From: a candidate division WOR-3 bacterium
GTDB lineage: Bacteria > Hydrothermota > Tepidihabitantia > B3-TA06
Reading direction: 5' to 3'
Length of the DNA: 64,000 nt
Assembly (NCBI GenBank): GCA_016934635.1
Contig: JAFGSK010000071.1
Span: 1,294-65,293 of the forward strand
In this document: positions 3,274 through 48,938 of the stretch, piece after piece
Position numbering within the stretch: the first letter of the stretch is position 1
Layout of the letters: each line of letters begins with the position of its first letter
Position numbers and translations under genes: made by a program
The notes under the pieces: model-generated
The model's input: the letters and a program-made list of their open reading frames with translations, nothing else
The model's database searches: none
Told to the model about the DNA's origin: nothing

Positions 3274-4743
3274 ATGGATGAGAAAGAACGTATATCTGAG
3301 ATGATTGATACTATCAGGAAGCTGGCACAGGGGGATTATTCTGCACAGGTTAAGCTTACTGGCAAGAACGATGAACTTGATGCTTTGGGTATGGGTTTGA
3401 ATATGATGATTGACGATATTAGATGCAATACCAAGGAGTTGAATGAAGCTCACCGCGCCTCACTTAATATTATGGAGGATTTAGAAAGGGAGAGGAAGGA
3501 ATTACGCGCTTTAACGCAACAACTTCAAGCCGAAATAACCGAGCGTAAACTGGCCGAAAAAAAAGAGAAAGAGTATATAAAAAATCTCAAGTTTTTATAC
3601 GATGCCGCCCTGGAGTTTGTTGAACTGGTACCTTTCAAGGCGCTATTCAAATACATTGGGGAAAAACTTTACCAGTTAATAGGATCGGTCATGGTAATAA
3701 CAGTTTCCTATGACGAAGATACCGGAAAATTTACAGCGCGGAGTGTTTCAGGGGCGAGTAGTAAAACCGAGGTTGTACTTAAATTCTTTAGCAAAAATCC
3801 GGTAGACCTAGAGTTTACAATACCACCTGTGGCTCAAGCTCAGCTGCATAGGGGTAAATTACAGAAGGTTCCGAACATTCTTGAAAAGGTCACCGATGTC
3901 AAAATTTCTGCGGAAATGGAAGCGGAACTGAAAAAAGATGTCGGTCTTGGAAACGTATATACAATGGGCCTTGCAAGAGGAGAAAGTCTGTTCGGATTTG
4001 TAATTGTGTTCATGCATGAAGGTGTCGAATTGATTAATAAAAGTGTTGTGGAGACATTTATCAATCAAGCGTCAATTGCACTGCAACGCGGCAAGATTGA
4101 GAAAGAACTAACCGCATCTCTTACAGAAAAGGAATTGCTTTTAAAGGAGATTCACCACCGGGTAAAAAATAACCTGCAAGTAATATCTTCCCTATTAAAC
4201 CTTCAAGCAAGATACGTAAATGATGAAGTGATGTTGAAGGTTTTTGCAAACAGTCAGAGCCGGATTGATTCTATGGCCCTTATTCACGAAAGGCTGTATA
4301 AATCCAAAGACCTGGCAAGGGTGAATTTTGAAGGTTACTTAAAGAGCCTTGTCCGTTCGCTATTTGAGTCCCACAATATCAGTTCCAGTAATGTTTCGTT
4401 AAAGTTGGATGTAAGTGGTGTTTCGTTGAGTATTGACAAAGCCATTCCTTTGGGGTTGATTATAAATGAATTGATAAGTAACTCGTTTGAGCACGGATTT
4501 CCTGAAGGCAGGAAAGGTGAGATAAGGATCTATTTAAGGAAGGCGGAAGATCGGGTTATGCTGACCGTTGCCGATAACGGCGTTGGTTTTCCTGAGGATC
4601 ATGATTTGAAATCGACGGATTCGTTCGGATTACGATTGATCAATATGCTGGTAGACCAGTTGAAGGGGAAGATAGAGCTTTGCAAGACCGATGGATCGAA
4701 ATTTAATATATCCTTCTCAGCTAGTAATAAGGATAACGACTAA
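3274..4743 (+). CDS. Cytoplasmic sensor histidine kinase, HisKA_2/HWE-type (HAMP-like segment, coiled coil, sensor module, HisKA_2, HATPase_c)
   Basis: [22 protein letters not shown]-box typical of HisKA_2. HATPase_c with DNGVGFP and GLRLI motifs. No TM segments. Confidence 0.85.
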
Positions 4744-10121: not shown

Positions 10122-13100
10122 AGCCAGCATTCTTGTTGTAGAAGATATCTCGGTGACCGCGCTGGATATAAAAAATCGGTTGTTGGAGTACGGATATTCA
10201 GTATGTGGGGTGGTGACTTCCGGAGAGGAAGCTTTGCTGGAAACTGAAAGATTAAGGCCTGATCTGGTACTTATGGATATTATATTACAAGGTAAAATAG
10301 ACGGGGTCGAGGCAGCAGAGAAGATTAAGGAGGAATTAAATATACCTGTTGTTTATCTCACGGCGCACATGGATAATGCCACCCTGGATAGAGCAAGACT
10401 AACCGAGCCGTTTGGTTATATCGTTAAACCATTTGAGACCAGGGAGATGGTTTCTACTTTGGAACTGGCGCTTTATAGACATAAGATTGAGCGGGCATTA
10501 AAGGAATCTGAGGAGCGTTACCGAAGCCTCCATTCCAACGTCCCGGTAGGCGTATTTCGTTCCACACCTTCGGGGGAGGTTCTTTCAGCTAATCCGGCCA
10601 TGGTAAGGATGATGGGCTATGATTCGGAAGATGAATACAAAACCGTCTCGATTCCTGACTTGTATCTTTATCCGCAGCAACGTGATAGGTTTGTCAAAAG
10701 GTTGAAAGATGATGGTGCGATTACTGAGTTTGAGGTTCAGCTTAGAAGAAAGAACCAGACCGTTTTCTGGGCGTCCCTGACCGCAAAGGCTGTTTCCGAT
10801 AACGAGGGAAAGATAGTACATTACGACGGTATCCTGGAAGACATTTCCGAACGCAAACAACGTGAGTTGCGTGGACAGATCAGGACTCAGCTTCTAGACA
10901 AGCTGCGAGGGGCAGAAACAATCCAGGGGTGTTTGCAGTTAGGTTGCGAGGCGGTACGAGACGCGGGTTTGTTCAAACGTGCGGTATTTACAACAAAGAA
11001 CGAGAAGGGCGAGACAACCAACGCCGGCTATGTTGGTGTGGATCGACAGATCGTTGAGGAGTTGAGGAAAAAACCGCCTGCAACACGTGAGATGTATGCC
11101 CGGATGTTGAAAGAAGATTTCAAGATAAGCCATTCCTACTTTTTACCGGTAGAGGCGGGTTTGGATATCTCCCAGACCGGTAGGTACGTTCTTCAAGACG
11201 TCTCCTCAGGGGAAGGCCCAGATGCATGGCAGCGGGGAGACGAGTTGCTTGTTCCCATGTTTTCCATGAGTGGTTTAGTGGAAAGCTGGCTCTCTGTGGA
11301 TACGCCCGTGGATGGGAAAAGACCTGACGAAGCAACAATTAATTACCTGGAGGATATCGTAGACATCGTCGCTCGTCAGATCAGAGAGATTAAAAACATC
11401 ACTGCGTTGCGAGAATCCGAAGAACGATACCGGAGTTTAACAGAAAGAGCCAGTGCCGGGGTATATATTTTCGGGCCTCAGGACCGATTTATTTTTGCAA
11501 ATCCCGCAATGGAAAAAATTACCGGTTATTCGCGTAAAGAACTGATTCATATGAATCCTTGGGACATAGTAGTTCCAGAAGACAAAGAAGGCGTACTGAA
11601 AGATCGAAGCCAGGCAAGAGTCAAAGGGGAGGAACTTGAGAGTTCTTATCGGATGCGGGTTATACGAAAGAATGGGGAGGAGGCAACACTCGAGATAAAA
11701 GCTACCCCGATTACGTATGAAGGAAAGCCTGCTCAGCTCGGACACTGTATCGATATAACAGAGAGTATCAAGAACGAGAAAAAGATCGAACATCTCAATT
11801 CTGTTCTCAGAGCCATACGGAATGTCAACCAATTGATCAGTCACGAGAGAGTGCCGGAGAAATTACTCGAAGGGATTTGCAGCAAGCTCGTAGAGACTCG
11901 TAGCTTCTACAGCGCTTGGGTCGTTCTTGTGGATGATTCCGGCAAAGTGGCGTTCATTGCCGAAGCGGGACTCAAGGACAAATTTGCGCCGATTTTAAAG
12001 CCGCTCAAACAAGGAAGACTTACGGATTGCGGTCTCAAGGCCCTGGAATGTGATGATATAATAGTAATCGATGATCCGGCAAACCTATGTCGAGATTGCC
12101 ATATTCTATCCGGAGAGATTGAATCGGGCATGATGTATACCAGATTGAAGTATGCAGAAAAGATCTTCGGTGTATTAGCCGTATCCTTATCTTCCGAACT
12201 CAGCCGTGAAACCGAGGAACAGGAGTTGTTCTGTGAAGTAGGAGGAGATATCGCGTTTGCACTGTACAGCATCGAGGCAGATGAGAAACGCAGGCAGGCG
12301 GAAGAGGCGCTGGAAAGGGAACACCGCGCTTTCAAGATAATCGCCGAAGCTTCAGTCCAGGCAAAGGATATTGCTGATTTATGTAAAAGGGTACTTGAAG
12401 GATTAGTAAAAGCTTTAGTTTTTGACGTGGGAACCTTCAGATTGTACGATGCGGATCACAAATTACTCAAGTTGTGGGCTTCTTTTGGCTTGAGTGAAGA
12501 AGAGATAAAGGATGCATCTGGGGCTCAACCGTTGAACGATCCCCGTTACGTTGCAGCTTTAACGGCACGCACTTCAGAACCAATAATCGCTCCTGATATC
12601 TACAGGACAGAAAGACTGCAACCCTTTATATCTAGACTAGAAAAATTCGAAGAGCGCTCCCTTATTTCCTGGCCTATCCTTGACGGACGGCAAGGCTTGC
12701 TCGGTGTATTACAACTCTGGTCCAAGAAAGAAGTAGATATCTCTGAAGGTGATAGGACATTTTTTGAAAGAGTGGCCGGGATGTTTGCCACTGTTTTGGA
12801 ACGCAAACGTACAGAGGAGGAACTTGATCGTCAGCACCAAAAAATAGAAGCATTGTTTGATAATGTCGATGTGCTGCTCTGGTCTATGCGAGAAGGAGAA
12901 GATGGGGAACTCTATTACGAACAGGTCAATTCTGCTTTTGCAGCTGTTGAAGGTTACTCCCCTGATTATTATAATGAGAAGACCATCTCTGAATTACATC
13001 CTCGTGAACAATGCAATGGTATCATGAATACTTATGCCTGGGTTAAGAATGACGGGATGCACGTTAATGATGTTCATTATAAGGGTAGACACTTTGTTAT

Positions 13101-15927
13101 GCGGTTCTTTCCCTTAAAAGATTTTGACGGCAGGATACGTGGATTCATCGGTTCAGGTATCGATATAACCGACCGTAAACGTGCCGAAGAAGGTATTAAA
13201 TCCCGTCTATTCTATGAAGAGAGTGTATCACACTGCTCTCAAATATTGGTAGAGATGGTGGATTTGGGTGAAGCACTTCAGCAGGTGACAGACGAGATGC
13301 TTTCGGTAGGAAAGGCCAGTCGTGCTTTTATATTCAAAAATCTTGACGGTCCGCAGGATGTTATATTCAGTCGTCTGATTAACGAGGCCGTTGCCGATGG
13401 TGTAGAGCCTCAGATTACGGATACCAGGTTTCAACACCTTGTTTTGCAAGAGGCGTCACAGGAGCTTTTCCAGAAACTTTCTTCCGGAAGACCTTATGGA
13501 GGATCTGTTAAGGAATTACCTTCAGAGGATAGAACGGCTCTTTTTTCACCTGAAACCCGTTCTGTTTTAATACTACCGATTCTTATAGAAGATAAATTCT
13601 GGGGATTTATTGGTTTTGAGGATCAGGTGAAAGAACGCAAGTGGACCCAGGAAGATATTCAACTCTTACGTACCCTAGGATCGCTGATTGGCTCTACGAT
13701 AGAAAGAAGGCGAGCAGAGGAGGGGTTACGTGAATCAGAGGAACGCTATCGGGCGTTTACCGAGGAAGCCCTGGTCGGCGTTTATATTTATCGTGAAAGA
13801 CGATTCCTTTTCGTAAACCGGGCCATGGAAGAAATCACCGGGTACTCCCGTGAAGAACTCCTCGCTATGGATACCGGGAAGCTGGTAATTGCCGAAGATC
13901 AAGCTATGTTAACGGCCAGATCCGAGGCGAGGGAAAGAGGCGAGGAGGTTCCTTCACAGTACAGTATGAGAATTGAAAGGAAGAACGGCCAGATAGCCGT
14001 TCTTGAGGTAAGAACCCGCCAGATAGTTTTTGCCGGACAAAAGGCTTATCTGGGCAACTGCGTGGATATTACCGAGATTCGGAGGGTCCAGGAGGCGTTA
14101 GAGAAATCAGAGGAGCGTTATCGGGTACTTACAGAGGAAGCTATGGTCGGTATTTATCTGACCGTGGGCAAGAATTTCGTTTTTCTTAATCCTGCGATGG
14201 AGAAGATAACCGGCTATACTCGTAATGAATTACTCAAGATAGATATGCATTCCATAGTTGTTTCGGAAGATGTAGAGATGATAACCGAAAGAAAAAAACA
14301 GCGAAAACCCGGACAGCCGGATCAATACACAATGCGCATAAAACGAAAGACCGGAGAGATTGCTACGTTGGAAGTCAGGGTTCGTCCTATTCCTTATCAG
14401 GATAAAGCGGCTTTCCTAGGTAACTGTGTTGACATTACCGAGATAATAAATAATAGGAAACAGATAGAACAGGCGAAAAGGGCCTGGGAGAGTACGTTTG
14501 ATTCTATCTCTGATCTCGTGATGATCCTGGATACTGAATATCGCATTATCCGGGCTAATCGTGCCGTAAAGGAGTATACCGGTATCGATTTCAACGATCT
14601 TTTAGGAAGAAATTATCTGGACGTATACAATTTGAACGAAGAAGATAAAGGCATGAAAGAAATACTAGGCAGAAAAGCCAAGCTTCCCGAACACTTCGAG
14701 ATCAAAGACTCGGTACGGGGCAGGATGTTTTCGGTATCGGTTTCTCCGTTGATCGATCCAGTAGGTGAGATAATAGCCACGGTTCACGTAGCGCGTGACA
14801 TCAGCGATATGCGGATGATGGAAGAGGCCTTGGCAGAATCTGAGGCGCAATTCAGGGGTTTGGCGGAGAGTGCAATGGATATTATATTCAGCGTGGAACT
14901 CGACGGAATGATCAGCTACGTCAATCCCAGCGTTGAGGAGATCCTGGGTGTCAATCCGGCGGTATTCATAGGAAGTAACCTCGGGAGTATGAAGGACTCG
15001 AGGCTTTTTACGGCTGAGGTTCGTAAAGTACTTAGCCGAAATCTTTCCTCAAATCTTGAAGAAAAAGATATACCGTTTTTCGAGATAGAGACCGAAGACG
15101 TGAAAGGGCGCAAGCATGTCATAGAGGTGTCTGCACGTAGATTATTTCATCGTATAGTAGGTATCGCACGCGACGTTACAGAACGGAATCTTATGCAACA
15201 GCAGTTGATCAAGGCTTCCAAACTGGCCTCGATCGGAGTCCTCGCTGCTGGGATAGCTCATCAGGTCAATAATCCGCTTGCTATACTTCTCGTACACTCT
15301 ACACTTCTTCGAACTATCTTTACAGATAGGGAGGAAATACCGTTGGAAGTAAAAGAAGAGGTATCAGAATATCTCGATACGATGGAGGAGCAGGTAGAAC
15401 GAACTCGTCGGGTAGTTTCAGGTCTTTTGGAGTTTACTCAACCTGAACGATCCGAACCGAAGCCTACTGACGTTAATCCAATCGTAAATCAAGCTGCAAA
15501 GTGGCTTTCTCAACGTTACTCTCTGGAGGAGTTGACGCTTGAGCTTTTTCTGGATAAAGCCTTGCCCCGAGCATTTCTCGATAAGGTAGCGTTGGAGCAG
15601 GTAATTATGAACGTTATCGAAAATGCATACGATGCCATGGAAGGCTCAGGCAAACTCTCAATCGAGACCATGCTTGTAAATCAGAGTACGGTTAGTATCC
15701 GGATCAGCGATACCGGCCCAGGTGTTCCTTCCGAGATTCGAGATGAGATTTTTGAACCTCTTTATACAACAAAGTCCGGCAAAAAGGGAACAGGATTAGG
15801 CTTGTCTCTTGCCTCAATGCTTTTAGAGCGTTTCGGAGGACGTATTTATCTTGCAGACACCAAAAACGAAGGTGCGAGTTTTGTAATAGAAGTTCCAGTA
15901 TACCAGGATAAGGTTGATGAATCTTAA
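10114..15927 (+). CDS. Giant multi-sensor hybrid histidine kinase: N-terminal REC, multiple PAS/GAF modules, classic HisKA + HATPase_c
   Basis: REC (LVLMDIILQ, IVKPF). At least six PAS-like and three GAF-like modules. H-box IAHQVNNPLAIL (HisKA). HATPase_c with DTGPGVP and GTGLGLSL. Start overlaps the upstream stop by 8 nt (ATGTCTAA). Confidence 0.85.
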   Translation: MSKASILVVEDISVTALDIKNRLLEYGYSVCGVVTSGEEALLETERLRPDLVLMDIILQGKIDGVEAAEKIKEELNIPVVYLTAHMDNATLDRARLTEPFGYIVKPFETREMVSTLELALYRHKIERALKESEERYRSLHSNVPVGVFRSTPSGEVLSANPAMVRMMGYDSEDEYKTVSIPDLYLYPQQRDRFVKRLKDDGAITEFEVQLRRKNQTVFWASLTAKAVSDNEGKIVHYDGILEDISERKQRELRGQIRTQLLDKLRGAETIQGCLQLGCEAVRDAGLFKRAVFTTKNEKGETTNAGYVGVDRQIVEELRKKPPATREMYARMLKEDFKISHSYFLPVEAGLDISQTGRYVLQDVSSGEGPDAWQRGDELLVPMFSMSGLVESWLSVDTPVDGKRPDEATINYLEDIVDIVARQIREIKNITALRESEERYRSLTERASAGVYIFGPQDRFIFANPAMEKITGYSRKELIHMNPWDIVVPEDKEGVLKDRSQARVKGEELESSYRMRVIRKNGEEATLEIKATPITYEGKPAQLGHCIDITESIKNEKKIEHLNSVLRAIRNVNQLISHERVPEKLLEGICSKLVETRSFYSAWVVLVDDSGKVAFIAEAGLKDKFAPILKPLKQGRLTDCGLKALECDDIIVIDDPANLCRDCHILSGEIESGMMYTRLKYAEKIFGVLAVSLSSELSRETEEQELFCEVGGDIAFALYSIEADEKRRQAEEALEREHRAFKIIAEASVQAKDIADLCKRVLEGLVKALVFDVGTFRLYDADHKLLKLWASFGLSEEEIKDASGAQPLNDPRYVAALTARTSEPIIAPDIYRTERLQPFISRLEKFEERSLISWPILDGRQGLLGVLQLWSKKEVDISEGDRTFFERVAGMFATVLERKRTEEELDRQHQKIEALFDNVDVLLWSMREGEDGELYYEQVNSAFAAVEGYSPDYYNEKTISELHPREQCNGIMNTYAWVKNDGMHVNDVHYKGRHFVMRFFPLKDFDGRIRGFIGSGIDITDRKRAEEGIKSRLFYEESVSHCSQILVEMVDLGEALQQVTDEMLSVGKASRAFIFKNLDGPQDVIFSRLINEAVADGVEPQITDTRFQHLVLQEASQELFQKLSSGRPYGGSVKELPSEDRTALFSPETRSVLILPILIEDKFWGFIGFEDQVKERKWTQEDIQLLRTLGSLIGSTIERRRAEEGLRESEERYRAFTEEALVGVYIYRERRFLFVNRAMEEITGYSREELLAMDTGKLVIAEDQAMLTARSEARERGEEVPSQYSMRIERKNGQIAVLEVRTRQIVFAGQKAYLGNCVDITEIRRVQEALEKSEERYRVLTEEAMVGIYLTVGKNFVFLNPAMEKITGYTRNELLKIDMHSIVVSEDVEMITERKKQRKPGQPDQYTMRIKRKTGEIATLEVRVRPIPYQDKAAFLGNCVDITEIINNRKQIEQAKRAWESTFDSISDLVMILDTEYRIIRANRAVKEYTGIDFNDLLGRNYLDVYNLNEEDKGMKEILGRKAKLPEHFEIKDSVRGRMFSVSVSPLIDPVGEIIATVHVARDISDMRMMEEALAESEAQFRGLAESAMDIIFSVELDGMISYVNPSVEEILGVNPAVFIGSNLGSMKDSRLFTAEVRKVLSRNLSSNLEEKDIPFFEIETEDVKGRKHVIEVSARRLFHRIVGIARDVTERNLMQQQLIKASKLASIGVLAAGIAHQVNNPLAILLVHSTLLRTIFTDREEIPLEVKEEVSEYLDTMEEQVERTRRVVSGLLEFTQPERSEPKPTDVNPIVNQAAKWLSQRYSLEELTLELFLDKALPRAFLDKVALEQVIMNVIENAYDAMEGSGKLSIETMLVNQSTVSIRISDTGPGVPSEIRDEIFEPLYTTKSGKKGTGLGLSLASMLLERFGGRIYLADTKNEGASFVIEVPVYQDKVDES

Positions 15928-19300: not shown

Positions 19301-19499
19301 TCAGCGGTTAGTTCTCCATCCTTGACATCACCGATCCTGTGACTATTATTATCCTCAATGTACGGCAATAAGGCGGTTGCATTCGCTACTGAACCAGGGG
19401 ATGCCTCCAGAAAAGACTCCAGACATGAATCGGACGCAGGTTTTTTTCGGGTTAACGGTCTATATAATGAGAAAGAAATTCCTTCGATCGGAGGTTTTA

Positions 19500-22358
19500 A
19501 TGTGGTCTAAGATGATTAGGGCTGCCATTGTGGGGTTGATACTTGCCGTGCCTGCGTCTGCGCAGTATTTCTACGGCAAGAACAAGGTGCAGCGGGAGGT
19601 TGAAGCAACCTATACCTACGAGACCGAGCATTGTACCATCTACATAGAAGAGGGCGGAGAGCCTCTTGCTAGGTTTGCTGCAGAGGCGGCAGAGGAGGCC
19701 TATAAGCAGCATGCCCAGGACTTCGGGTTCGAGATTCCTTTCAAGATTCCGGTCATCATCTATAAATCGCAGCCTGATTTTGCCGCAACCAACATTATAC
19801 TTGAACCTATCGAGGAATCGATAGGCGGCTTTGCAGAGATTTTCAAGAACCGCGCGGTAATTCCTTTTACCGGATCCTACGAGGATCTCAGGCACGTTAT
19901 CTTCCACGAACTGGTGCATATTTTCCAGTACGAGCTATACTACTCTTTGACTATGTCCAACCTTTTCTCCATCATACCCGGTTTTACACCGCCTCTGTGG
20001 ATAATGGAGGGCTGTGCAGAATTTTCGTCATCCCACGGAGGCGCGGACGAAGACGCCTTCATGCGCGATCTACTCCTGACCAACAATATCATTCCCCTGG
20101 AAGAGCTGGAGTATTGGCAGGGTTATATCGTTTACCGCCAGGGTGAGTCGGTATTCATGTTCATCGAGGATCGCTACGGTCGTGAAAAGGCCTTTGAACT
20201 CATGCACGCCATCAAGTTGAGGGGGAGCATGGACGGTGCGTTCGAGAAGGTTTTCGGGATGAGTGTCGAGGAGTTCGGCAAGGACTGGCTGAACTGGCTG
20301 CGCAAGAAGTATCTTCCCGAGATAGAAAAACTGGACAACCGCAAGATCCAGGCCAGGCTGCTAACAGACCATGAAAAGGACTTTTCGTACTACAACGGTA
20401 GTGTGGCCCTCTCGCCATCAGGTGCCAAGATAGCCTATGCTACCACCAAGGGAGACTATATCACGGTCAACGTGATCAGCGGGTTCGACGGCAAGCCTTT
20501 AAAGAAGCTGCTCAAGGCAGGTCGCTCGGCAACCTTTGAGAGGTTACCGCTTCTGCGCCGGACCCTTGCCTGGTCCGAAGATGAGACCTATCTTGCAGTA
20601 CTAGGATTTTCCCGCAACCAGCCGGTTCTTTTGTGGGTAAACTACTCCACAGGCAAGACCGAGAAAAGGTATCGGCTGAAGGTTGATGATGCATATGCAC
20701 CTGTCATATCACCTGACGGTAATCGCGTGGTTTACGTGGGTATCAAGGACGGCCAAAGCGATCTTTATTCGCTTGACCTGGGGTCGGGAAACGTTGAACG
20801 TTTAACCTACGACCTTTACGAGGAGCAGGACCCTTCTTTTAACGAAGGTTACGTGCTTTACGTGTGCGATAAGCCTGATCAAGACAGCGTATGGCGCGTA
20901 GGCAGCTACGCCGTATGGCAGCTATCAGCGTCAGGAAGGACCAAGCGCGTCTCACCGAGGTTCTCTGAACTTTCCTGCCCATATCGTATGGAAGATGAGA
21001 TTGTATTCATAGGTTCCGGATACAATCTTTACTCCTATGATCCGGAGGATTCCACCCTTATTCAGCTTACCGACTGGTTCGAGAAGATAGAGGAGTTTTC
21101 GCCTGCTTCAAGCGGGAAGGCTGCGATGATTATTTACACCAACTCGGGTTACGACGTGGCAATGCTTAACGGTACCCTCGAAGGTCTTACACCTGCCCAG
21201 GACAGCCTGGAGATAGCCCATGCCGATCTTTTCTCCTATGAGCCGGAAGAGGTGACCATAGAGGACCTTGAACCCTACAAGCCAGCCTTTTCGGCGGATT
21301 ACATCTACGGGTCAGGGGCTTACTCCTCCCTGTACGGGGCAACCGGCAATATCAGCCTGGCTATCAGCGATATGCTGGGAGATCACCGCATCTACATAGA
21401 CGCCAATCTCTACGGGGATATACTCTATTCGGATATAGTCGTATCCTACTGGTTCCTTAAACGCAGGGTAGATTATGCGGTTGGCGGTTTTCAACTTGGC
21501 GATTATTATCTGTATTTAACCTCGGATTCGTCGTTTTTGTACATCGAGCGTGCCCGGCGAGGATTGAGTACCCTGGTTTCAATGCCCTGGAGTAAGTTTT
21601 TCAGACTGGAAACCGGCCTTGACGGGATGGCGGTAACTCACCATGAGTATTACGACGGATACATTGACGAAACAGGCAACATAGTATTTGAGCATGATAC
21701 GATATACACCCAGCCTTTATTCCAAGCCAACGCCTGGCTTGTGTTCGACAATGCGATATGGAATTACTATACCCCGATGAACGGATTGCGGCTGAGGTTG
21801 GGTGGGTACAGTTCCTTTCTTTCTTCTACCCAATACCAGACCGTGATGACCGACCTCAGGGGCTATCTACCGATCACACGCAGAGCCTCGATTGCCCTTC
21901 GTACCTTTGGGGCTGCAAGTTTCGGTCAAGACAGGGAATACTTCTATCTGGCCGGAGGCGGATTCGGGGAGTACCGCGATTTCTTCTTCTTCGGCGGGCC
22001 GTACGAGGTTCGGGGCTACCAGTACTCCTCCTACGATGCGTTCGTCGGTTCAAAGGTTGCTTTTGCAAACCTTGAGCTCCGGGTTCCGTTCGTGGATCAG
22101 CTGAAGATGTCTTTTCCCCTGCCATTGAACCTGGGCGGGATTCGAGGGGTTGTTTTTACCGATGCCGGGTTCGTATGGGACGAAGAACTGCCTCGACTTT
22201 GGCAGGGCGGCAGACTCGAAGACCTCAAGGCCGGGTACGGGGTAGGAATTCGCTGGGTCTTCGGTTACTTTATGCTCAAGTTTGATTTTGCCAGGCCGTA
22301 TCAAACCGATGAGGAGAAACCATGGAAGTTTCATTTCCGGATAGGTGCGGATTTCTAA
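19500..22358 (+). CDS. Outer-membrane Omp85-family beta-barrel protein with N-terminal HEXXH metallopeptidase-like domain and PD40/TolB-like beta-propeller repeats
   Basis: RBS GGAGG 9 nt upstream of ATG 19500. Signal peptide MWSKMIRAAIVGLILAVPASAQ. HELVH zinc-binding motif. PD40-like repeats (ISPDGNRVVYV, SDLYSLDLGSG). C-terminal Omp85 barrel signatures: the VRGY loop-6 motif (GGPYEVRGYQY), GYGVGIRWVFGYFMLKFDFARP, terminal F. Confidence 0.6.
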   Translation: MWSKMIRAAIVGLILAVPASAQYFYGKNKVQREVEATYTYETEHCTIYIEEGGEPLARFAAEAAEEAYKQHAQDFGFEIPFKIPVIIYKSQPDFAATNIILEPIEESIGGFAEIFKNRAVIPFTGSYEDLRHVIFHELVHIFQYELYYSLTMSNLFSIIPGFTPPLWIMEGCAEFSSSHGGADEDAFMRDLLLTNNIIPLEELEYWQGYIVYRQGESVFMFIEDRYGREKAFELMHAIKLRGSMDGAFEKVFGMSVEEFGKDWLNWLRKKYLPEIEKLDNRKIQARLLTDHEKDFSYYNGSVALSPSGAKIAYATTKGDYITVNVISGFDGKPLKKLLKAGRSATFERLPLLRRTLAWSEDETYLAVLGFSRNQPVLLWVNYSTGKTEKRYRLKVDDAYAPVISPDGNRVVYVGIKDGQSDLYSLDLGSGNVERLTYDLYEEQDPSFNEGYVLYVCDKPDQDSVWRVGSYAVWQLSASGRTKRVSPRFSELSCPYRMEDEIVFIGSGYNLYSYDPEDSTLIQLTDWFEKIEEFSPASSGKAAMIIYTNSGYDVAMLNGTLEGLTPAQDSLEIAHADLFSYEPEEVTIEDLEPYKPAFSADYIYGSGAYSSLYGATGNISLAISDMLGDHRIYIDANLYGDILYSDIVVSYWFLKRRVDYAVGGFQLGDYYLYLTSDSSFLYIERARRGLSTLVSMPWSKFFRLETGLDGMAVTHHEYYDGYIDETGNIVFEHDTIYTQPLFQANAWLVFDNAIWNYYTPMNGLRLRLGGYSSFLSSTQYQTVMTDLRGYLPITRRASIALRTFGAASFGQDREYFYLAGGGFGEYRDFFFFGGPYEVRGYQYSSYDAFVGSKVAFANLELRVPFVDQLKMSFPLPLNLGGIRGVVFTDAGFVWDEELPRLWQGGRLEDLKAGYGVGIRWVFGYFMLKFDFARPYQTDEEKPWKFHFRIGADF

Positions 22359-23557
22359 CCAGGCGGATCTTTCCCTCGGTGTTTTTTGTGGGAGTGGTTC
22401 TTGTTCTCACCGGATGTGTGAATATCCTTAAGCCTCCCGAAGATATACTCTATGAAGATATCCCTGAGTATTCCTGGGAAACCCTTCTGCTTCAACATTC
22501 ATTCAATTTCAACTATAACAGCTACAGCGACGTTTTTTCATTCGAGGTTAGAGGTAAAGGGCAGGTTGTTATGCCTGATGCGCTGCGGTTTAAGGGCACC
22601 TGGAAGTTAGGTGAAGAAGAGCGAGTTCTCGACATGGCTGCAGCCGGGTCTTTTCAACTGGAGAAGGAGGGGGGGCAATGGGTAGCCCGTCAGCGAAGCG
22701 AGGAAACCAAGATAATTGACCAGGTTGACCAGGTTTTACGTTATTCACTTTTACGTAAGAAAGGAAAGGGGTTTGAACTGGTTGAAGATGAAGGTAAAGT
22801 GCTGAATTACTCATTTACACCCGCCCTGGCACACCTTGATCCGAAATTTGAAAAGGAGTTCGACGCGATATTAGTAATCGACGGCAGGACACTTCTGGCA
22901 AAGGAGATTCACGTTATTTCGGACGATGAGGAGGTAGGGTTTGATTTTGAAATATCAAGTGTAAATCGGGCAAAAAAGATCGGTCTTCCTTTTTCTGCAA
23001 ATTTTATGATTACGTACGATCACGAGTGGGGGAGTACGGGTAAGGCTACAAGGGGTTTAAAGAAGCGCTTGAAGGAGTTAGGTCGTGAATCTCGCATTCA
23101 CGTGCGGCAGGGTGAGATTGAAGTTAGGCTGGCCCTTCCTGTGGATGAGTCGATTGCCCGTGCATTGGGTGAACCGGGTCAGCTAACTATTCTTGGTTTG
23201 AACCTTGAAGGTTCGGGCCCAACGATTAACAAGAGGGGAGAGGTTTCAGATATCTTCCATGTGGCTGATACGGTGGCATGGCCTGTGGTAAAATCGGTTG
23301 AACTCGGGTTCGATTCGCTGAGCAGACCCTTACTTGAAACGGAACTCGTTAAGTCCGAGCCTTTATCCCGCTCATTTGACTATCTCGGTGTTGCAGTTGA
23401 CGGTGTGCTATATGAGGTTTTTGCGGTTGACAATCCCCTTGATTTGATTAGGATTTCAAATGTGGCTACCTATCAGGATGTCCTTGCGTTGGCATTGAAG
23501 CTGGAAAAAGACATGAGGGCAAAGATGAATTTTGTCGACCAGAAGCGTCTGAGGTAA
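22322..23557 (+). CDS. Hypothetical lipoprotein
   Basis: Signal peptide with lipobox LVLTGC. No recognizable catalytic motifs. Overlaps the 3' end of the Omp85-like gene. Confidence 0.5.
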   Translation: MEVSFPDRCGFLTRRIFPSVFFVGVVLVLTGCVNILKPPEDILYEDIPEYSWETLLLQHSFNFNYNSYSDVFSFEVRGKGQVVMPDALRFKGTWKLGEEERVLDMAAAGSFQLEKEGGQWVARQRSEETKIIDQVDQVLRYSLLRKKGKGFELVEDEGKVLNYSFTPALAHLDPKFEKEFDAILVIDGRTLLAKEIHVISDDEEVGFDFEISSVNRAKKIGLPFSANFMITYDHEWGSTGKATRGLKKRLKELGRESRIHVRQGEIEVRLALPVDESIARALGEPGQLTILGLNLEGSGPTINKRGEVSDIFHVADTVAWPVVKSVELGFDSLSRPLLETELVKSEPLSRSFDYLGVAVDGVLYEVFAVDNPLDLIRISNVATYQDVLALALKLEKDMRAKMNFVDQKRLR

Positions 23558-23848
23558 AGGTATGATTTCTAATCGTGATCCAGGTAGTGTTCTTTTGGGC
23601 AGGATAGTTGAGAGGCGGAATAGATTATAGAGGGAAGTTACAATATTATGAGAAACGGTACAAAAAGGAGTGTCTAGGAAGCTAATTGATCGTTCTATGA
23701 TCGATTCCAGACCGAGTAAAATCACGAGATTCCCTTGTAAAAAAGGGATACAAGACCAAGAGGTGTGCCGTATGAAAAAAGCGAATATAACCTATTATGA
23801 TAATTGTTGTTTGTATGTGGAGTATAGTAAGAAAACAAGGGGGATAGG

Positions 23849-26800
23849 TTGAGAAAAATAACAGCCCTTCTTTTTGCTTCATGGTCTTTAGCTTTGAGTC
23901 AGGTCAGCGTTACTTCAGCTATACCTGGCGAGGTAAAGATCAAGATTAGGGCGCCTGAGAGTGTAGACGCTTTAACCTCTCACAGCAAGTTAGATCTCGA
24001 GAATCTTTATCCAGGGACTAAGCTGGTCGCAGATACATCAGGTACAGTTTTACCTCAGTATGTAATTTATATTGGCGTACCTCCTCATGGAGAGGTTCGA
24101 GTTGATTTCCAGTTAGGTTCATCGCGTAATTTAAAAGGAATTCAGCTTGATGACCTGCACTGGCCTGCAGTCCTGGAGAAACCTGGTGACGAACCCAGGA
24201 TTAGTCACTGGGTGAGTAATGCATCCAGAGTTGACTACACCGTAAGCCGTTGGCGGGATTACCGGGTTGTAGTCATTAACGCAAGACCGATCTTCTACGA
24301 TACGACGACAAACACCCTAACATTATACAAGGAGATTGCAGTTGAGGTTTCTTTCAGCGAACCGCCTTACCAGACAGGTGAACCTATAACCAACAGCAAT
24401 CTTGAGTACATATATTCCTCATCGATAACGAATTACGAACAGTGTAAAGACTGGACAATACCTTTTGGAGAGGTAGCATCCAATCCTTTTAAAGGCACGG
24501 ATAATTGGATCAAAGTCAGGATTCCAGAGGACGGGGTTTACCGTATCAGCTTTCGGGATTTAAAGAAACTGGATATAGAGCCTGACAAGATAGACCCTAA
24601 GACCTTACGGTTAGTTTACGCGGGAGAACGCCTGATAGATGAGAATCTCCCGGATACATTGAAGGAATTACCGATCTATGTTCACGGAGAGATGGACGGA
24701 AGCTTTGATCGTGAGGATTACATCGTTTTCTTTGCCCGTGGAGCTAACCATTGGGATTTTACCCAGCGAAGGTTCGAAACGAACCCTTATGTTAATGAAA
24801 ACGTGTACTGGCTAACCTGGGGCGGGGCAAAGGGTATACGGAATCCTACACGTGCCGCATATCCATTGGTCAGGGAAGCGGAGCATTCAGCTCCTGGTAT
24901 ACTTCACTTTGAGGAGGATCACGAGTGTCCTGGTCGTGCAGGCTTCCTTTGGTTATGGGAAGAGATTACGAAGACAAATGTGGATGTTATACGAAAGGAT
25001 ACCTTTATACTTGATCTTTCAGGCGTAATAGCAGTGGATACCTTTACTATCAAGGCTTATACTACGACCAGACAGGCAGGTTTTCGCGTACTGGTAGACG
25101 AAGACACTCTTTACTCCATACCAGTTGCAGATGACAGCAGGTACCCACCTGATTACGTTTCTGTTTCTCCAGGATTTACTATTAAAGATGAGCTTCCTTT
25201 AGTTATCGAAGTATTCGGTCCTTCGGAGCAGAATCTATATCCAGATTGGATACGGATGGTTGCAACGCGGGAATTGTCATTTAAACATAACCCTTTCTGG
25301 GTAGAACTGGAACCTAATAAGGTATACGAGTTCGGTGGTGTCAGATCCGGTTCATATCTTTATGATTATAGCGATCCTGCAAATCCGGTTATCCTGACTG
25401 ATTGGCAGCTTAAAAACAGAAAGCTCGTGATGAGTACTCGAACAAAGGAGATTATACCGGTTTGGGTCGCTGCCGGGCAGGGACTTCTTATACCAGACCT
25501 TGAAATTGCAGAACCGGGGAAGCTTTGGGATGAGGATTGGAATGTCGATTACGTGATTCTTTCAACCAGCGAGAATTTCGAGGCTGCCAGTGAATTGAGC
25601 GAATACCGGTCGCAGAACCTCCAGATTCCAGGGGTAAGCACCCCAAGGGTAAAGGCTGTAGATTTAGCGGATATTGTTCGAGATTTCGGCTACGGATTAG
25701 CCGAACCACAGGCAATTCGTCATTTCCTTTCCTACGTATACAATAAAAGCGCGGGTAGAACCCTTTATGTACTGATCATGGGAGACGGATCATACGATTA
25801 CAAGAACAACCTGGGTTTTACGGGTAGGCCGGAGTATTTTCCAATTCATACTCAGGATACGATACTCGATCCTAACGTGTATACGGTGATTGCGGCAACG
25901 AAGGAAGCATGGTTCGTAGATTTTGACGATGACGGTGAACATAACCCTGAGATGTGCATTGCCAGGATAACTGCAAGAGGCCCGCGTGAAGCCTACGACG
26001 TTCTAGAGAAGATTAAGGCATACGAACAAGTTCCTGCCGAGGCATGGCAGAGTCGTGTCATCTTGCTTTCCGACGACTATTACGAAGGAAGTCCCTCCAT
26101 AAGAGATCCAATCTCCAATCATATACCTGCTAATGAGGAGTTAGCCAAAGATTACCTTTATCCTGAATTCGATCCTGTCAAGGTTTACCTGTCCGACTAT
26201 CCACTTATCGGTGGGAGAAAAGATGACGCCAAGAAAGCCTTAATCGATGCACTGAACAGAGGAGCGTTACTGTGGCAGTTCTTTGGACACGGTAATGGAA
26301 GCCAGCTTGCTCATGAAGAGGTTTTCTTGTACTCCGATGCCTCAGGATTGCAGAATGGAAGCAAGTTACCTCTGGCCTTGTTCTGTTCGTGTGGGGTAGG
26401 ACGCTTCGAGGATACACGGTGGGAATGCGTGGCCGAGGAGCTTTTACGAAATGAAAACGGAGGCGTGATTGCATCGATTGCCGCTACCAAAGGCACCGGG
26501 CCAGATGCCAATCAATATATGACCGATTCTCTTTTCAGTAAATACAGGGGGTTTAAAAACTCAAACCTAGGTGATCTCTTTTTCTCACTGGTTCCGGGCA
26601 ATTCAATTACTATCCTTTACGTTTTATTCGGTGACCCTGGGATGCGATTCTCGTTTCCTACCGCTCTGGAGGTTAGTTCGGCATCGGATTCTTTTGTTAC
26701 CGGCGACACTGCAGTGGTATTATTTAACGCTCCCGCAGAAGAGGGTGGATGGTTTGCATCTGCATACGGAAGTTGGGTTAAGAAAAAAGAGGTTGTCTAC

Positions 26801-27691
26801 GGTATTGGTTATGGTTTTAAAGGAGATTTACTTTATCGAGCGCGGGGCGAGCTCTCAGGTGAAGAGCAGATATTGAGGTTTATAGTGCCTCAAGGGGTTG
26901 CAGAAGGGGATTCTGCATACATACACTTGATGTGTGCAGACGATGATTCTATCTATACATATCGGATTGAACCGATCAAGGTCGTCACAGGTTCTGTTAC
27001 GTCGAGTGATTACCAAGGACCGACTGCAGGATTCTTGGTTAACGGTAAACCTGTTCTTGATGGGGATACCGTTCTTCCGTCTTTCACCCTGACAATCGAA
27101 CTCCAAGATCAGTCAGGGATAAACCTGGCAGGTAAAACAGGACTTCGAGGACCTGCCATAGGTCGCAAGTTCAGTCTAGAGATCAACGAATCAGATCCAG
27201 TCGACCTTTCTCCTTACTTTGAGTATGAGGTTTCTTCAGATGAACTGGCTACCAAAGGTGTTGCGAATCTGCCGATTTCGTTTGCACAGGAGGACAATAT
27301 CCTTACATTATACGCCGTAGATAACATGAGAAATACCTCCCAGTACGATCTCAACCTTTATACCGCCTTTGAACGCAATCTTGAAGTAGAGACGCCTTTA
27401 GTTTATCCCAATCCGGTTTCATCTACTGCAGAGTTTACGTTTGAGCTTAATGCAGCAGCAGATGTATCGGTTCTGATATTTTCGATAAGCGGTAGACTTG
27501 TTAGACGTCTGCCTGTCCTGTCTTATCCAGAAGGCTTTAGTTCCTATGCCTGGGATGGATTGGATGCCAGCGGTAGACCTCTGCCCAATGGCGTTTATAT
27601 CTATCGTTTAACGGCAGAAACAGGTCCTGAAGATGCCTGGTTGCCCAATGCACGCACCTCGGTAAACGAGAAGTTTATCGTGGTGCATTAG
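23849..27691 (+). CDS. Peptidase C25 (gingipain/PorU-like) family cysteine peptidase with C-terminal T9SS sorting domain
   Basis: TTG start with RBS AAGGGGGA. Signal peptide. Segment LLWQFFGHGNGSQ...LALFCSCGVGRF is compatible with the C25 His/Cys dyad region. C-terminus YPNPVSSTAEFTFEL...VSVLIFSISGRLVRRL...GVYIYRL matches the Por_Secre_tail CTD. Length 1280 aa is similar to PorU. Confidence 0.6.
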   Translation: MRKITALLFASWSLALSQVSVTSAIPGEVKIKIRAPESVDALTSHSKLDLENLYPGTKLVADTSGTVLPQYVIYIGVPPHGEVRVDFQLGSSRNLKGIQLDDLHWPAVLEKPGDEPRISHWVSNASRVDYTVSRWRDYRVVVINARPIFYDTTTNTLTLYKEIAVEVSFSEPPYQTGEPITNSNLEYIYSSSITNYEQCKDWTIPFGEVASNPFKGTDNWIKVRIPEDGVYRISFRDLKKLDIEPDKIDPKTLRLVYAGERLIDENLPDTLKELPIYVHGEMDGSFDREDYIVFFARGANHWDFTQRRFETNPYVNENVYWLTWGGAKGIRNPTRAAYPLVREAEHSAPGILHFEEDHECPGRAGFLWLWEEITKTNVDVIRKDTFILDLSGVIAVDTFTIKAYTTTRQAGFRVLVDEDTLYSIPVADDSRYPPDYVSVSPGFTIKDELPLVIEVFGPSEQNLYPDWIRMVATRELSFKHNPFWVELEPNKVYEFGGVRSGSYLYDYSDPANPVILTDWQLKNRKLVMSTRTKEIIPVWVAAGQGLLIPDLEIAEPGKLWDEDWNVDYVILSTSENFEAASELSEYRSQNLQIPGVSTPRVKAVDLADIVRDFGYGLAEPQAIRHFLSYVYNKSAGRTLYVLIMGDGSYDYKNNLGFTGRPEYFPIHTQDTILDPNVYTVIAATKEAWFVDFDDDGEHNPEMCIARITARGPREAYDVLEKIKAYEQVPAEAWQSRVILLSDDYYEGSPSIRDPISNHIPANEELAKDYLYPEFDPVKVYLSDYPLIGGRKDDAKKALIDALNRGALLWQFFGHGNGSQLAHEEVFLYSDASGLQNGSKLPLALFCSCGVGRFEDTRWECVAEELLRNENGGVIASIAATKGTGPDANQYMTDSLFSKYRGFKNSNLGDLFFSLVPGNSITILYVLFGDPGMRFSFPTALEVSSASDSFVTGDTAVVLFNAPAEEGGWFASAYGSWVKKKEVVYGIGYGFKGDLLYRARGELSGEEQILRFIVPQGVAEGDSAYIHLMCADDDSIYTYRIEPIKVVTGSVTSSDYQGPTAGFLVNGKPVLDGDTVLPSFTLTIELQDQSGINLAGKTGLRGPAIGRKFSLEINESDPVDLSPYFEYEVSSDELATKGVANLPISFAQEDNILTLYAVDNMRNTSQYDLNLYTAFERNLEVETPLVYPNPVSSTAEFTFELNAAADVSVLIFSISGRLVRRLPVLSYPEGFSSYAWDGLDASGRPLPNGVYIYRLTAETGPEDAWLPNARTSVNEKFIVVH

Positions 27692-27700: not shown

Positions 27701-28477
27701 ATGGCTAATCTGTTATGGCTTAAGCCGACCGCTGGGGGGAACCTTCCCCCAACCAGTATATTCTTGGCAACGAGGAGGGCAATTAATGCACTTTTTGTTC
27801 TTGGAAGCTTCAATCCGGTCCTGAGACCGAAGGCATACGAACGTTTAGTTACATTACTCTACGAACGTTTCAAGACACTTGGGTTGAATGATGTAAGGGT
27901 AGAGCATTCCCTGGAGTCCGGCAGGATTTTAGGTCAAGATTTACCTATCTACGTCGCTCTCAGGAGACCGAAGGACCTTTTGACTACTACTACCTTTTCC
28001 GAGATACTTGCCGAGCAGCAGATGCTTCACGAGGACTTGGAAAGGGAAGATGTCTTCAAGCTTCTTTATCAGGCGATCAACGGTGTCCAGCATATCTTGA
28101 CCGACACCGAAGCTGCATGGAAGCTTCTGTGCGAGGAGTGGGACTCCCTTGAGATTGAAAACGACGAGCCTTTTGCCGAACGTATATCACCTGAAGGGGA
28201 TTTATACCGCGTCAATCTCAGACCTGCCAAGGAACTTGCCCTAGATATGTCCAGGCTCTTCGAGGCGATGAAACGTTCAACCTTACTCCTCAGCGCTGGA
28301 TTCGAGCAACGTAAGACTCGACTTTTAGCCGCAGTGTCTTCAATTGGCGTCGAAGCGGATGAGGTTCCGGAACAACCTTTGAGGCATTCTGAGTCTTACA
28401 AGACCAGGGTACGTCCTGCATATCGGTTACTTCACGCTTCGGAGATCGCAGGGCTGTTGACTCCATCCGGTAAATAA
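27701..28477 (+). CDS. Hypothetical protein
   Basis: 258-aa ORF with no recognizable motifs. Tightly follows the C25 gene. Confidence 0.4.
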   Translation: MANLLWLKPTAGGNLPPTSIFLATRRAINALFVLGSFNPVLRPKAYERLVTLLYERFKTLGLNDVRVEHSLESGRILGQDLPIYVALRRPKDLLTTTTFSEILAEQQMLHEDLEREDVFKLLYQAINGVQHILTDTEAAWKLLCEEWDSLEIENDEPFAERISPEGDLYRVNLRPAKELALDMSRLFEAMKRSTLLLSAGFEQRKTRLLAAVSSIGVEADEVPEQPLRHSESYKTRVRPAYRLLHASEIAGLLTPSGK

Positions 28478-28510: not shown

Positions 28511-28855
28511 ATGTTGGTTCGCAGTATAACCGAGGTAAAACAAGACCAGGTGGAGACTGAAGGGGCCAGCGGTGTGAAGATTCGTTGGCTTATTTCAGCC
28601 GATGAGGGAGCACCGAACTTCGCCATGCGCGAATTCGAGATTGAACCTGGAGGGCACACACCTTATCATTCGCATGACTGGGAACATGAGGTTTTCGTGC
28701 TTTCAGGAGAGGGGACGGCGGTCAGCGAGGGAAAAGAGCACCCTATAAAAAAAGGGATGGTTGTTTTCGTTCCGGGAAGGGAAATGCACAACTTCAAGAA
28801 TACCGGGTCAGAAACGCTCAGGTTTCTGTGTTTAGTTCCCCATAAGAAGGATTAA
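28511..28855 (+). CDS. Cupin domain protein (cupin_2)
   Basis: RBS AAGGAGG. Motifs PYHSHDWEHEVFVLSGEG ... MHNFKNTG are typical of the small bicupin-fold metal-binding site. Confidence 0.7.
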   Translation: MLVRSITEVKQDQVETEGASGVKIRWLISADEGAPNFAMREFEIEPGGHTPYHSHDWEHEVFVLSGEGTAVSEGKEHPIKKGMVVFVPGREMHNFKNTGSETLRFLCLVPHKKD

Positions 28856-46894: not shown

Positions 46895-46954
46895 TTGAAA
46901 ATTAGAGGACGAGAATGATTCGTATGGAATCACTCGTCAATAAGAGTTGATGCT

Positions 46955-46977
46955 CGGGCCGCTCGAAGGGCGGCCCG
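46955..46977 (+). terminator. GC-rich hairpin (CGGGCCGC-loop-GCGGCCCG) after paralog 1; weak U-tract
   Basis: 8-bp perfect stem with a 7-nt loop, followed by UAUCGUUUAA. Confidence 0.4.
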
Positions 46978-47097
46978 TATCGTTTAAGAGGAAAAAAAAA
47001 GGTAATTGTAATTACCGTGATAAACGAACAGAATCCTTAAGGTTTATTGAGGATTCGATGGTTCAACGGAAAAGAAGACTAATCCTGGAGGTCTTTA

Positions 47098-48864: not shown

Positions 48865-48888
48865 AAAACGACAACTCACAAATAATTA

Positions 48889-48918
48889 TAGCCGCTCTGA
48901 AAGGGGCGGCTTTATTTC
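48889..48918 (+). terminator. Rho-independent terminator (AGCCGCUC-loop-GGGCGGCU + UUUAUUUC)
   Basis: Stem-loop followed by a U-rich tract immediately after the paralog 2 stop. Confidence 0.6.
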
Positions 48919-48938
48919 AAATCGGCAATTATTGATGC

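Follow-up and report, generated by a model that had tools for sequence, protein, structure and literature searches.

The 1280-residue C25 cysteine peptidase encoded in the 64-kb stretch of DNA analysed here (the window) is probably the PorU orthologue of a WOR-3 (Caldifarciminota / 'Stahlbacteria') bacterium and not a gingipain-like cargo protein, judging from sequence comparisons and a predicted structure. PorU acts at the cell surface, where it trims T9SS-exported proteins and anchors them; in P. gingivalis it keeps its own C-terminal domain (CTD) uncleaved, whereas gingipains are cargo proteins from which PorU removes the CTD. The sequence-only reading had offered both identities. Three observations favor the first and count against the second: (i) the protein passes the PorU equivalog HMM, (ii) it is colinear with PorU over its full length and (iii) it is orthologous, by position and phylogeny, to the porV-linked PorUs of the phylum. 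Weighing against the PorU assignment are the lack of an adjoining porV, the 14-bit margin of the HMM score, the replacement of Arg722 by Lys881 and a zymogen-type prodomain.

The coding sequence agrees exactly with the ORF list, as had been claimed (Table 1), and an identical protein from a WOR-3 MAG is present in NCBI (P0001). The TTG codon is the earliest start codon after the upstream stop in our reading of the sequence, and its use is supported by homologues whose N-termini (MRRI...) coincide with it in alignment; the strong ribosome-binding site described earlier was also found. The putative signal peptide has an n-region, a hydrophobic region and a cleavage-like site (ALS/Q), a layout shared by homologues.

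Table 1. Window coordinates of the PorU-type gene, its neighbors and the candidate cargo genes
Feature	Coordinates	Strand	Remarks
PorU-type C25 cysteine peptidase gene	23849..27691	+	ORF list; 1280 aa plus stop; TTG start
Ribosome-binding site AGGGGGA	23838..23844	+	4 nt before TTG start; read from sequence
Predicted Sec signal peptide	23849..23899	+	aa 1-17, MRKITALLFASWSLALS followed by Q; inferred from sequence
Gingipain-type prodomain	23903..24448	+	aa ~19-200
PorU N-terminal domain cluster	24464..25528	+	aa ~206-560; aligns with 6za2 from residue 24 onward
C25 catalytic domain	25541..26668	+	aa 565-940
His814 codon	26288-26290	+	C25 catalytic domain
Cys848 codon	26390-26392	+	C25 catalytic domain
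Lys881 codon	26489-26491	+	position of P. gingivalis Arg722
Two Ig-like beta-sandwich domains	26681..27388	+	aa ~945-1180; all-beta in AF2 model
Type A T9SS C-terminal domain	27401..27688	+	aa 1185-1280; TIGR04183, FlgD_ig, alignment with PorU CTD
Omp85-family barrel + HExxH (MA-clan) peptidase-like domain + beta-propeller (Omp85-MA)	19377..22358	+	Pfam and NCBIfam matches
411-aa lipoprotein	22322..23557	+	profile A4 against PDB: 3aqo_A, E 1e-6; AF2 + Foldseek
258-aa protein	27701..28477	+	no Pfam or NCBIfam match; starts 10 nt past PorU stop
LVIVD protein, candidate T9SS cargo	42939-45044	+	TIGR04183 14.8 bits, cut-off 23
Paralogue 1, candidate T9SS cargo	45191-46894	+	TIGR04183 19.7 bits, cut-off 23
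Paralogue 2, candidate T9SS cargo	47098-48864	+	TIGR04183 27.5 bits, cut-off 23, isolated tail
Paralogue 3, candidate T9SS cargo	49022-50785	+	TIGR04183 20.9 bits, cut-off 23

Domain architecture and relation to PorU and the gingipains

From its N-terminus onward, the protein comprises a predicted signal peptide, a prodomain of gingipain type, the N-terminal cluster of PorU, the C25 catalytic domain, a pair of Ig-like domains and a type A CTD. Pfam identifies Propeptide_C25 (PF08126; residues 135–198, 27.8 bits against a cut-off of 22), Peptidase_C25 (residues 568–933, E = 2e-59) and FlgD_ig (residues 1192–1259, 44.9 bits), and the C25-like His/Cys region noted earlier is located within the second of these matches (GHGNGSQ at residues 813–819 and CSCGVG at residues 846–851). 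The claim of a canonical Por_Secre_tail C-terminus holds in part: the protein ends in a type A CTD and scores 28.5 bits with TIGR04183, above the cut-off of 23, but the Pfam Por_Secre_tail model gives 22, below its cut-off of 27. The N-terminal cluster, which covers NF033707 profile positions 4 onward, is beta-rich and confidently predicted in the AF2 model (pLDDT 79 and pTM 0.71 for the 1280-residue protein). The Ig-like pair is colinear with PorU chain residues 790–1060, and the local IGL HMM matches PorU homologues from every phylum sampled.

The NCBIfam equivalog model for PorU (NF033707, T9SS_sortase) matches with 433.9 bits against a cut-off of 420, a small margin of only 14 bits, over positions 4–737 plus a second stretch; it also matches 18 of 18 aligned relatives. 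No gingipain model matched the protein in the NCBIfam search. PorU2 (NF052324, a putative second T9SS sortase) is rejected as the identity of the protein because the score, 138.5 bits, is far below the cut-off of 450, although the C25 core is common to both. When the single sequence was used to query the PDB with phmmer, PorU (6za2) was the sole C25 match and no gingipain chain appeared at E < 0.01. Alignment to PorU and RgpB/Kgp and structure prediction, two of the checks suggested in the sequence-only reading, both place the protein closest to PorU. Positions 203–1271 of the family profile align with residues 24–1153 of the 6za2 chain in one unbroken alignment (E = 4.3e-126), whereas RgpB (9e-22) and Kgp (2e-12) align through the catalytic core only, at profile positions 662–958. 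Foldseek with the AF2 model ranks 6za2 first (E = 3e-43, ~1110 columns), compared with ~520 columns for the gingipains.

Like P. gingivalis PorU (PG0026, PDB 6za2), to which it is about 15–22% identical in sequence, the WOR-3 protein has the N-terminal cluster, the catalytic dyad, two Ig-like domains and a type A CTD. It differs in an extra 180-residue gingipain-type prodomain at the N-terminus, in the Lys at the Arg722 position, in a next gene that is not porV and in its host phylum, which lies outside the FCB group in NCBI taxonomy.

If the protein were instead T9SS cargo, it would be a gingipain-like zymogen, secreted or surface-anchored, that degrades protein, with a CTD cut by another enzyme and a prodomain removed on activation. 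RgpB and Kgp are indeed zymogens with an N-terminal prodomain (PDB 4ief, 5mun, 1cvr, 4rbm), and the presence of such a prodomain, a type A CTD as found in cargo and the separation from porV are all consistent with that role. Gingipains, however, have no second Ig-like domain and no counterpart of the ~350-residue N-terminal cluster of PorU. In a gingipain-type order the catalytic domain comes right after the prodomain; here the PorU-specific cluster lies between them, and this cluster and both Ig-like domains are colinear with PorU. A Pfam search of the 1280-residue protein found no gingipain IgSF or adhesin domain, and the PorU model is passed. The same prodomain is present in PorV-linked PorUs of many phyla, the gene is the positional orthologue of a PorV-linked WOR-3 PorU and seven related MAGs each have one porU-type locus by a pattern scan that may miss paralogues (the collection scanned does not contain the window's own MAG, and its best match is 58% identical). 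We consider a cargo role very unlikely.

Catalytic residues and prodomain

The conserved C25 catalytic His and Cys, on which the sequence-only reading had made its proposal depend, are present as H814 and C848. In alignments these residues match the GHG and ATC motifs of 6za2; neither varies among 18 sequences that include a named Polaribacter PorU, and both are conserved in 49 of 49 aligned homologues of a wider alignment. We take the P. gingivalis PorU dyad to be H657/C690. The C690 numbering agrees with the placement of Arg722 32 residues past the Cys (PMC4560394).

Arg722 was proposed by Gorasia et al. (2015) as a sortase-like residue that sets PorU apart from gingipains (PMC4560394). The protein studied here does not have this conserved Arg, its position being occupied by Lys881, and in other PorV-linked homologues Thr, Gly, Asp or Gln is found; Arg is kept in Bacteroidota, Ignavibacteria, Chlorobiota and Caldithrix/KSB1. 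As judged from these alignments, Arg722 is not universal among PorV-linked PorUs, and the position does not discriminate because Arg is also missing in homologues adjoining porV. In Gram-positive sortase A (C60), a Cys thioester intermediate is resolved by an amine (PMC4560394, PMC10202324). The chemistry proposed for PorU is analogous, but the fold is unrelated and the conserved Arg of the sortase has no Arg counterpart here. The finding at the Arg722 position questions the use of this residue as an argument for sortase-like chemistry.

Prodomains are a usual feature of secreted zymogens. Residues 19–200 share homology with the prodomains of Kgp and RgpB, and the family profile matches 5mun_A and 4ief_A; within this region, residues 102–124 are of low confidence. 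This element is absent from P. gingivalis and Flavobacteriia PorU, and most PorV-linked PorUs outside Bacteroidota carry it; at the sequence level, the gingipain-style prodomain sets the WOR-3 PorU apart from studied PorU. Latency of P. gingivalis PorU is achieved via a dimer beta-hairpin, and the prodomain suggests a second, gingipain-like means of holding the sortase latent. We found no account of a PorU with a prodomain in the literature searched.

Relatives, porV and the neighboring genes

In 25 fetched loci, a gene with the five-part architecture of the window protein, including the prodomain, has porV at its end or immediately beyond it (within ~0.5 kb); among these loci are L015, L018, L022 and L035 from WOR-3. 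PorV-linked PorUs of other WOR-3, Krumholzibacteria, Eisenbacteria and Melioribacteraceae (L015–L072) share this architecture with the window protein, but porV is the next gene there and not in the window clade. In an NJ tree, the clade of the window protein has 100/100 bootstrap support; it is sister to the porV-followed WOR-3 PorUs, and the group formed by the window clade and the other WOR-3 PorUs is also supported at 100/100.

Although porV is usually found directly downstream of porU, this arrangement is not obligatory. Neither porV nor core T9SS genes were found in the window or within ≤10 kb on each side of the window-clade loci (the seven related MAGs plus L001/L002), and ~2.7 kb and ~6 kb of extra DNA beyond the window ends contained no T9SS genes. 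Because the core genes of a T9SS usually lie dispersed over the genome, their absence from 64 kb is expected. The same absence could be read as the mark of a relic, a PorU gene that has outlived the T9SS of its lineage and is now non-functional or repurposed. Against this, the full-length ORF is conserved at 46–58% identity across at least 14 relatives with the dyad and CTD invariant, and CTD-bearing candidate cargo genes are present in the same window. A relic seems to us extremely unlikely.

Proteins that NCBI names as PorV/PorQ family are common in WOR-3 among the matches listed, which are the best 120 of 452 obtained with a WOR-3 PorV query against 5.8 billion proteins. Two of those listed (P0141 and P0127) are from other WOR-3 MAGs, not the window clade, and their loci have the arrangement Omp85-MA, lipoprotein, GT2, PorV.

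The general WOR-3 gene order is Omp85-MA, lipoprotein, (GT2), PorU, (PorV). The Omp85-MA gene is the first of this conserved cluster and is found upstream of PorU throughout WOR-3. Its true start is likely Met46 at 19512; a promoter-like site precedes the gene (19322–19349, 11 of 12 positions matching), and an HELVH motif at residue 177 is conserved in orthologues. In WOR-3 the lipoprotein gene is always flanked by the Omp85 gene on one side and by PorU (or GT2) on the other. The C-terminal half of its product resembles the SecDF P1 domain, and the N-terminal half resembles LolA/LprG/RseB, with low model confidence. Sister WOR-3 lineages have Omp85-MA, lipoprotein, PorU and PorV in sequence, and at two loci (L086/L087) the Omp85-MA module is followed directly by PorV. 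The Omp85 family adjoins porU–porV in WOR-3, Melioribacteraceae and Cytophagales, and a module of Omp85-MA, lipoprotein and usually GT2 genes looks linked to porU/porV across three phyla on the basis of gene order. The Omp85-MA family numbers 798 clusters at E ≤ 1e-30. A jackhmmer match of the Omp85 family to L021 was discarded as a TolB-like false positive.

The 258-residue protein gene follows PorU only in the window clade, where it fills the place that porV has in other WOR-3 lineages. We rejected both immediate neighbors as divergent PorVs: the 411-residue protein is a lipoprotein whose two halves resemble LolA and SecD-P1, and it has no beta-barrel, and the 258-residue protein has neither a beta-barrel nor a signal peptide.

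The unrelated gene in the porV place, the tight and conserved link to the Omp85-MA and lipoprotein genes, the Lys at the Arg722 position and an identity of ~32% to other WOR-3 PorUs could indicate a PorU-derived paralogue or diverged orthologue with an altered role. It might then be a C-terminal signal peptidase that lacks transpeptidase activity, or an enzyme partnered by the Omp85/lipoprotein module instead of PorV. Arg is also missing in homologues that do adjoin porV, however, and the same Omp85 module occurs beside porU–porV pairs in other lineages. The gene tree follows phylum (100/100), and the catalytic dyad and CTD are intact. We regard an altered role as unlikely and favor a PorU orthologue.

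Candidate cargo, proposed mechanism and significance

Where six T9SS-CTD proteins within about 27 kb had been suggested, we found five with type-A-like tails (the PorU gene product, the LVIVD protein and three paralogues), and only two of the five, the PorU gene product and the isolated tail of paralogue 2, reach the TIGR04183 cut-off. TIGR04183 is the top or only match on each of the four candidate cargo tails, at the C-terminus, and the tails align with common GVYF...K.VLVR motifs. An HMM built from PorU CTDs did not recognize the cargo tails in the window, whereas the general TIGR04183 model matched them.

In the mechanism that we propose, PorU would cross the inner membrane via Sec, and its own CTD would then direct its export by the T9SS. 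On the cell surface it would retain this CTD intact, attached to a PorV-type barrel whose gene would lie elsewhere in the genome. The prodomain would block the active site until it is removed at the surface, an intramolecular, gingipain-style latency that may replace or supplement the dimer beta-hairpin mechanism of P. gingivalis PorU. Cys848 would attack the bond preceding the CTD of cargo, e.g. the three paralogues at 45–51 kb, and the resulting thioester could be resolved by water or by an amine on an envelope glycolipid. It is possible that the Omp85-MA, lipoprotein and GT2 proteins supply or position a lipid-linked acceptor in place of PorZ/PorQ. The joint proposal that a prodomain-bearing PorU is ancestral outside Bacteroidota and that the neighboring genes are unrecognized T9SS attachment accessories is a tentative one, and we hold it to be rather doubtful.

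No account of a T9SS in WOR-3 was found in the literature searched, and PMC11285876 does not name the phylum in its list of those with a T9SS. WOR-3 now has a cultured member, strain sy37, and published WOR-3 genome studies do not mention secretion.

Our reading of the locus is that the 1280-residue protein is probably machinery, the sortase, and that the downstream CTD-tailed paralogues are likely substrates. It would place a complete PorU in WOR-3, a phylum missing from the T9SS lists in reviews, and the Omp85/lipoprotein/GT2 module offers concrete candidates for parts of the attachment complex outside Bacteroidota. If the prodomain form is ancestral and common outside Bacteroidota, the T9SS sortase would as a rule be a zymogen in the gingipain style, and the dimer hairpin that keeps P. 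gingivalis PorU latent would be a later substitute.

Identity of the C25 peptidase

Four independent lines of evidence favor PorU rather than a T9SS cargo as the identity of the 1280-aa C25 peptidase: a curated family model, colinearity with a known PorU, the active site and orthology. The open reading frame is as described from the sequence alone, with a ribosome-binding site ahead of a TTG that is the first start codon past the upstream stop and coincides with the aligned start residue of homologues. An identical NCBI protein on a 112-kb contig is named 'T9SS type A sorting domain-containing protein [candidate division WOR-3 bacterium]'. The C-terminal tail passes TIGR04183 (28.5 bits, cut-off 23), and the Pfam Por_Secre_tail match is sub-threshold.

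The PorU equivalog model NF033707 matches the target at 433.9 bits (cut-off 420) and all 18 of its 18 aligned relatives, and no gingipain model matched the target in the curated HMM scan. PorU2 was considered as a separate identity and rejected (138 bits, cut-off 450).

The sequence-only reading had left the choice between sortase and gingipain-like cargo to alignment and structure prediction, and both point to PorU. The family profile aligns with the Porphyromonas gingivalis PorU crystal chain, 6za2, in one unbroken stretch (E 4.3e-126) that pairs profile positions 203–1271 with chain residues 24–1153, the whole mature PorU, whereas the matches to RgpB (9e-22) and Kgp (2e-12) are both confined to positions 662–958. 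This chain is also the only C25 chain found in a PDB search with the single target sequence, and it is the top Foldseek hit (E 3e-43, ~1110 columns, versus ~520 for gingipains) of an AF2 model covering residues 20–1190 (pLDDT 79, pTM 0.71). The catalytic His and Cys expected of a C25 peptidase are present: H814 and C848 are invariant in the family alignment, including a named Polaribacter PorU, and align with the PorU GHG and ATC motifs.

Features of the target gene and other window genes
Feature	Location	Strand	Details
Ribosome-binding site	4 nt 5′ of target TTG	+	AGGGGGA; sequence
Target (C25 peptidase)	23849–27691	+	1280 aa
Propeptide_C25	target aa 135–198		Pfam, 27.8 bits (cut-off 22)
Peptidase_C25	target aa 568–933		Pfam, E 2e-59
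GHGNGSQ	target aa 813–819		sequence
CSCGVG	target aa 846–851		sequence
FlgD_ig	target aa 1192–1259		Pfam
Omp85-MA	19377–22358	+	Omp85 barrel, HExxH (HELVH, aa 177) MA-clan peptidase-like domain, TolB/Tricorn-like propeller
Lipoprotein	22322–23557	+	411 aa; lipobox LTGC; no Pfam/NCBIfam family
258-aa protein	27701–28477	+	starts 10 nt past target stop; no family, no signal peptide
Cupin gene	28511–28855	+	next after 258-aa protein
Giant hybrid sensor kinases	4743–15927	+	1792 and 1937 aa, adjacent
Tandem paralogues (three)	45191–50785	+	567–588 aa

Orthology, Arg722 and porV

The genome scan, with one genome per species, gave 78 loci, most of which share the target's five-part architecture (local HMMs). 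In 25 of them, including the WOR-3 loci L015, L018, L022 and L035, porV lies at or immediately past the end of the PorU gene, within ~0.5 kb. The target and its close relatives (46–58% full-length identity) form a clade with 100/100 support in an NJ tree, and the union of this clade with the other WOR-3 PorUs has the same support. Gene order is shared across the phylum: Omp85-MA, a 400-aa lipoprotein, (GT2), PorU and (PorV). Loci L086 and L087, from other WOR-3 MAGs, have the same upstream module followed directly by PorV. Taken together, tree and gene order make the target an orthologue of PorV-linked PorU by both position and phylogeny.

The target resembles PorU in most of the tests of membership but departs from it at Arg722 and in porV adjacency, neither of which is universal among PorV-linked PorU homologues. 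Arg722 was reported as a conserved PorU residue that gingipains lack (Gorasia et al. 2015, PMC4560394); the target has Lys881 at this position. This proposed sortase-like hallmark is, however, not conserved across the PorV-linked PorUs of several phyla. The column holds Thr in other WOR-3, Gly in Krumholzibacteria, Asp in Eisenbacteria and Gln in Latescibacteria, and it is also not conserved in Marinimicrobia (alignment of loci L015–L076); retention of Arg is confined to Bacteroidota, Ignavibacteria, Chlorobiota and Caldithrix/KSB1.

No porV was found in the window or in the fetched flanks (up to 10 kb each side) of the clade's loci, where the 258-aa protein and cupin pair stands in its place, an arrangement seen in this clade only. 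Core T9SS genes were likewise not found in the 64-kb window or short contig extensions. Proteins that NCBI names PorV/PorQ abound in WOR-3, a separate phylum outside the FCB group in NCBI taxonomy; a literature search found no paper linking WOR-3 to the T9SS, although PorV already appears by name in database annotation for the phylum. Beside PorU in L018, PorV (8214–9692) has a ~110-aa insertion near its N-terminus (a 493-aa ORF, versus ~371 aa in close relatives).

The upstream module

The genes upstream look functionally tied to porU and porV. Omp85-MA, which no named family fits, lies directly upstream of PorU (or PorV) throughout WOR-3, and its HExxH peptidase-like domain is conserved. Its relatives at E ≤ 1e-30 fall into 798 clusters at 50% identity. 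Full-length homologues also neighbor porU-porV in two other groups: in Cytophagales the gene is placed divergently, about 2.5 kb upstream, and in Melioribacteraceae porU and porV are followed by the gene for a T9SS-dependent M6-like protein and then, after a 3-nt gap, by Omp85-MA.

The position of the lipoprotein is constant, with the Omp85 gene on one side and PorU or GT2 on the other. The search found only 15 homologues, none with a functional name (all 'hypothetical' or unnamed) and all from WOR-3 or unnamed metagenome sequences; the three with a named source belong to WOR-3 MAGs or to unclassified metagenome bacteria. The C-terminal half of the lipoprotein resembles the SecDF P1 periplasmic domain (E 1e-6), and a low-confidence model suggests a LolA-, LprG- or RseB-like fold for the N-terminal half. 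In most relatives a ~500-aa, Glyco_transf_21-like GT2 separates the lipoprotein from PorU/PorV (8/8 sequenced relatives in the clade, plus the WOR-3 loci L086 and L087 and locus L030); the corresponding interval of the window (23558–23848) is intergenic, and tblastn found no copy anywhere in the window. A role for the module in cargo attachment is speculation.

Elsewhere in the window, each of the two giant kinases combines a receiver domain with many PAS/GAF modules; the pair is flanked by a third kinase (HisKA_2) upstream and by two response regulators downstream.

Prodomain, candidate substrates and predicted mechanism

The prodomain is found in most non-Bacteroidota PorU homologues, PorV-linked ones included, whereas those of Flavobacteriia, Cytophagales, Chlorobiota and Marinimicrobia lack it. 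No publication on a prodomain-bearing PorU turned up in a literature search; what appears new here is a putative PorU that has a gingipain-type prodomain and is unlinked from porV.

Several variants were seen. Loci L060, L070 and L080 (Chloroflexota MAGs) and L082 (Thermoplasmata MAG) have the prodomain, PorU N-terminal cluster and catalytic domain without Ig-like domains, CTD or PorV, which points either to mis-binning of the contigs or to a CTD-less branch of the family outside the T9SS phyla. L028, which carries a complete porU-porV pair under a Hyphomicrobiales label, is probably mis-binned. At the KSB1-type MAG loci L020 and L024, porV is lacking and two PorU-like genes of full length stand in tandem. 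Cloacimonadota MAGs (L046/L085, L052/L083 and L062/L077) have two PorU-like loci each, one being a short form (~614–645 aa) without prodomain and N-terminal cluster.

The likely substrates within the window are the three paralogues and the LVIVD protein. With the target, these make five CTD proteins, where six had been counted from sequence alone. TIGR04183 is the top or sole match on the four candidate cargo tails (27.5, 20.9, 19.7 and 14.8 bits), three of which score below the cut-off of 23; in the paralogues the type-A-like CTD tail is the sole recognizable domain. Predicted signal peptides of the paralogues and the target end in AFG or ALS followed by Gln, the +1 residue of the 'Bacteroidetes Q-rule', which is reported not to be valid for the whole FCB group (PMC5837995).

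The proposed mechanism rests on the target's domain order and intact dyad, with its steps drawn from established T9SS knowledge (PMC10202324, PMC5445135). The target would be exported via Sec, with its signal peptide cleaved after Ser17, then by the T9SS through its own CTD, and would be retained on the surface by a PorV-type barrel. The prodomain would impose latency until removed. Cys848 would then attack the bond before a cargo CTD, forming a thioester that water or a glycolipid amine could resolve. The target is predicted to work like PorU.
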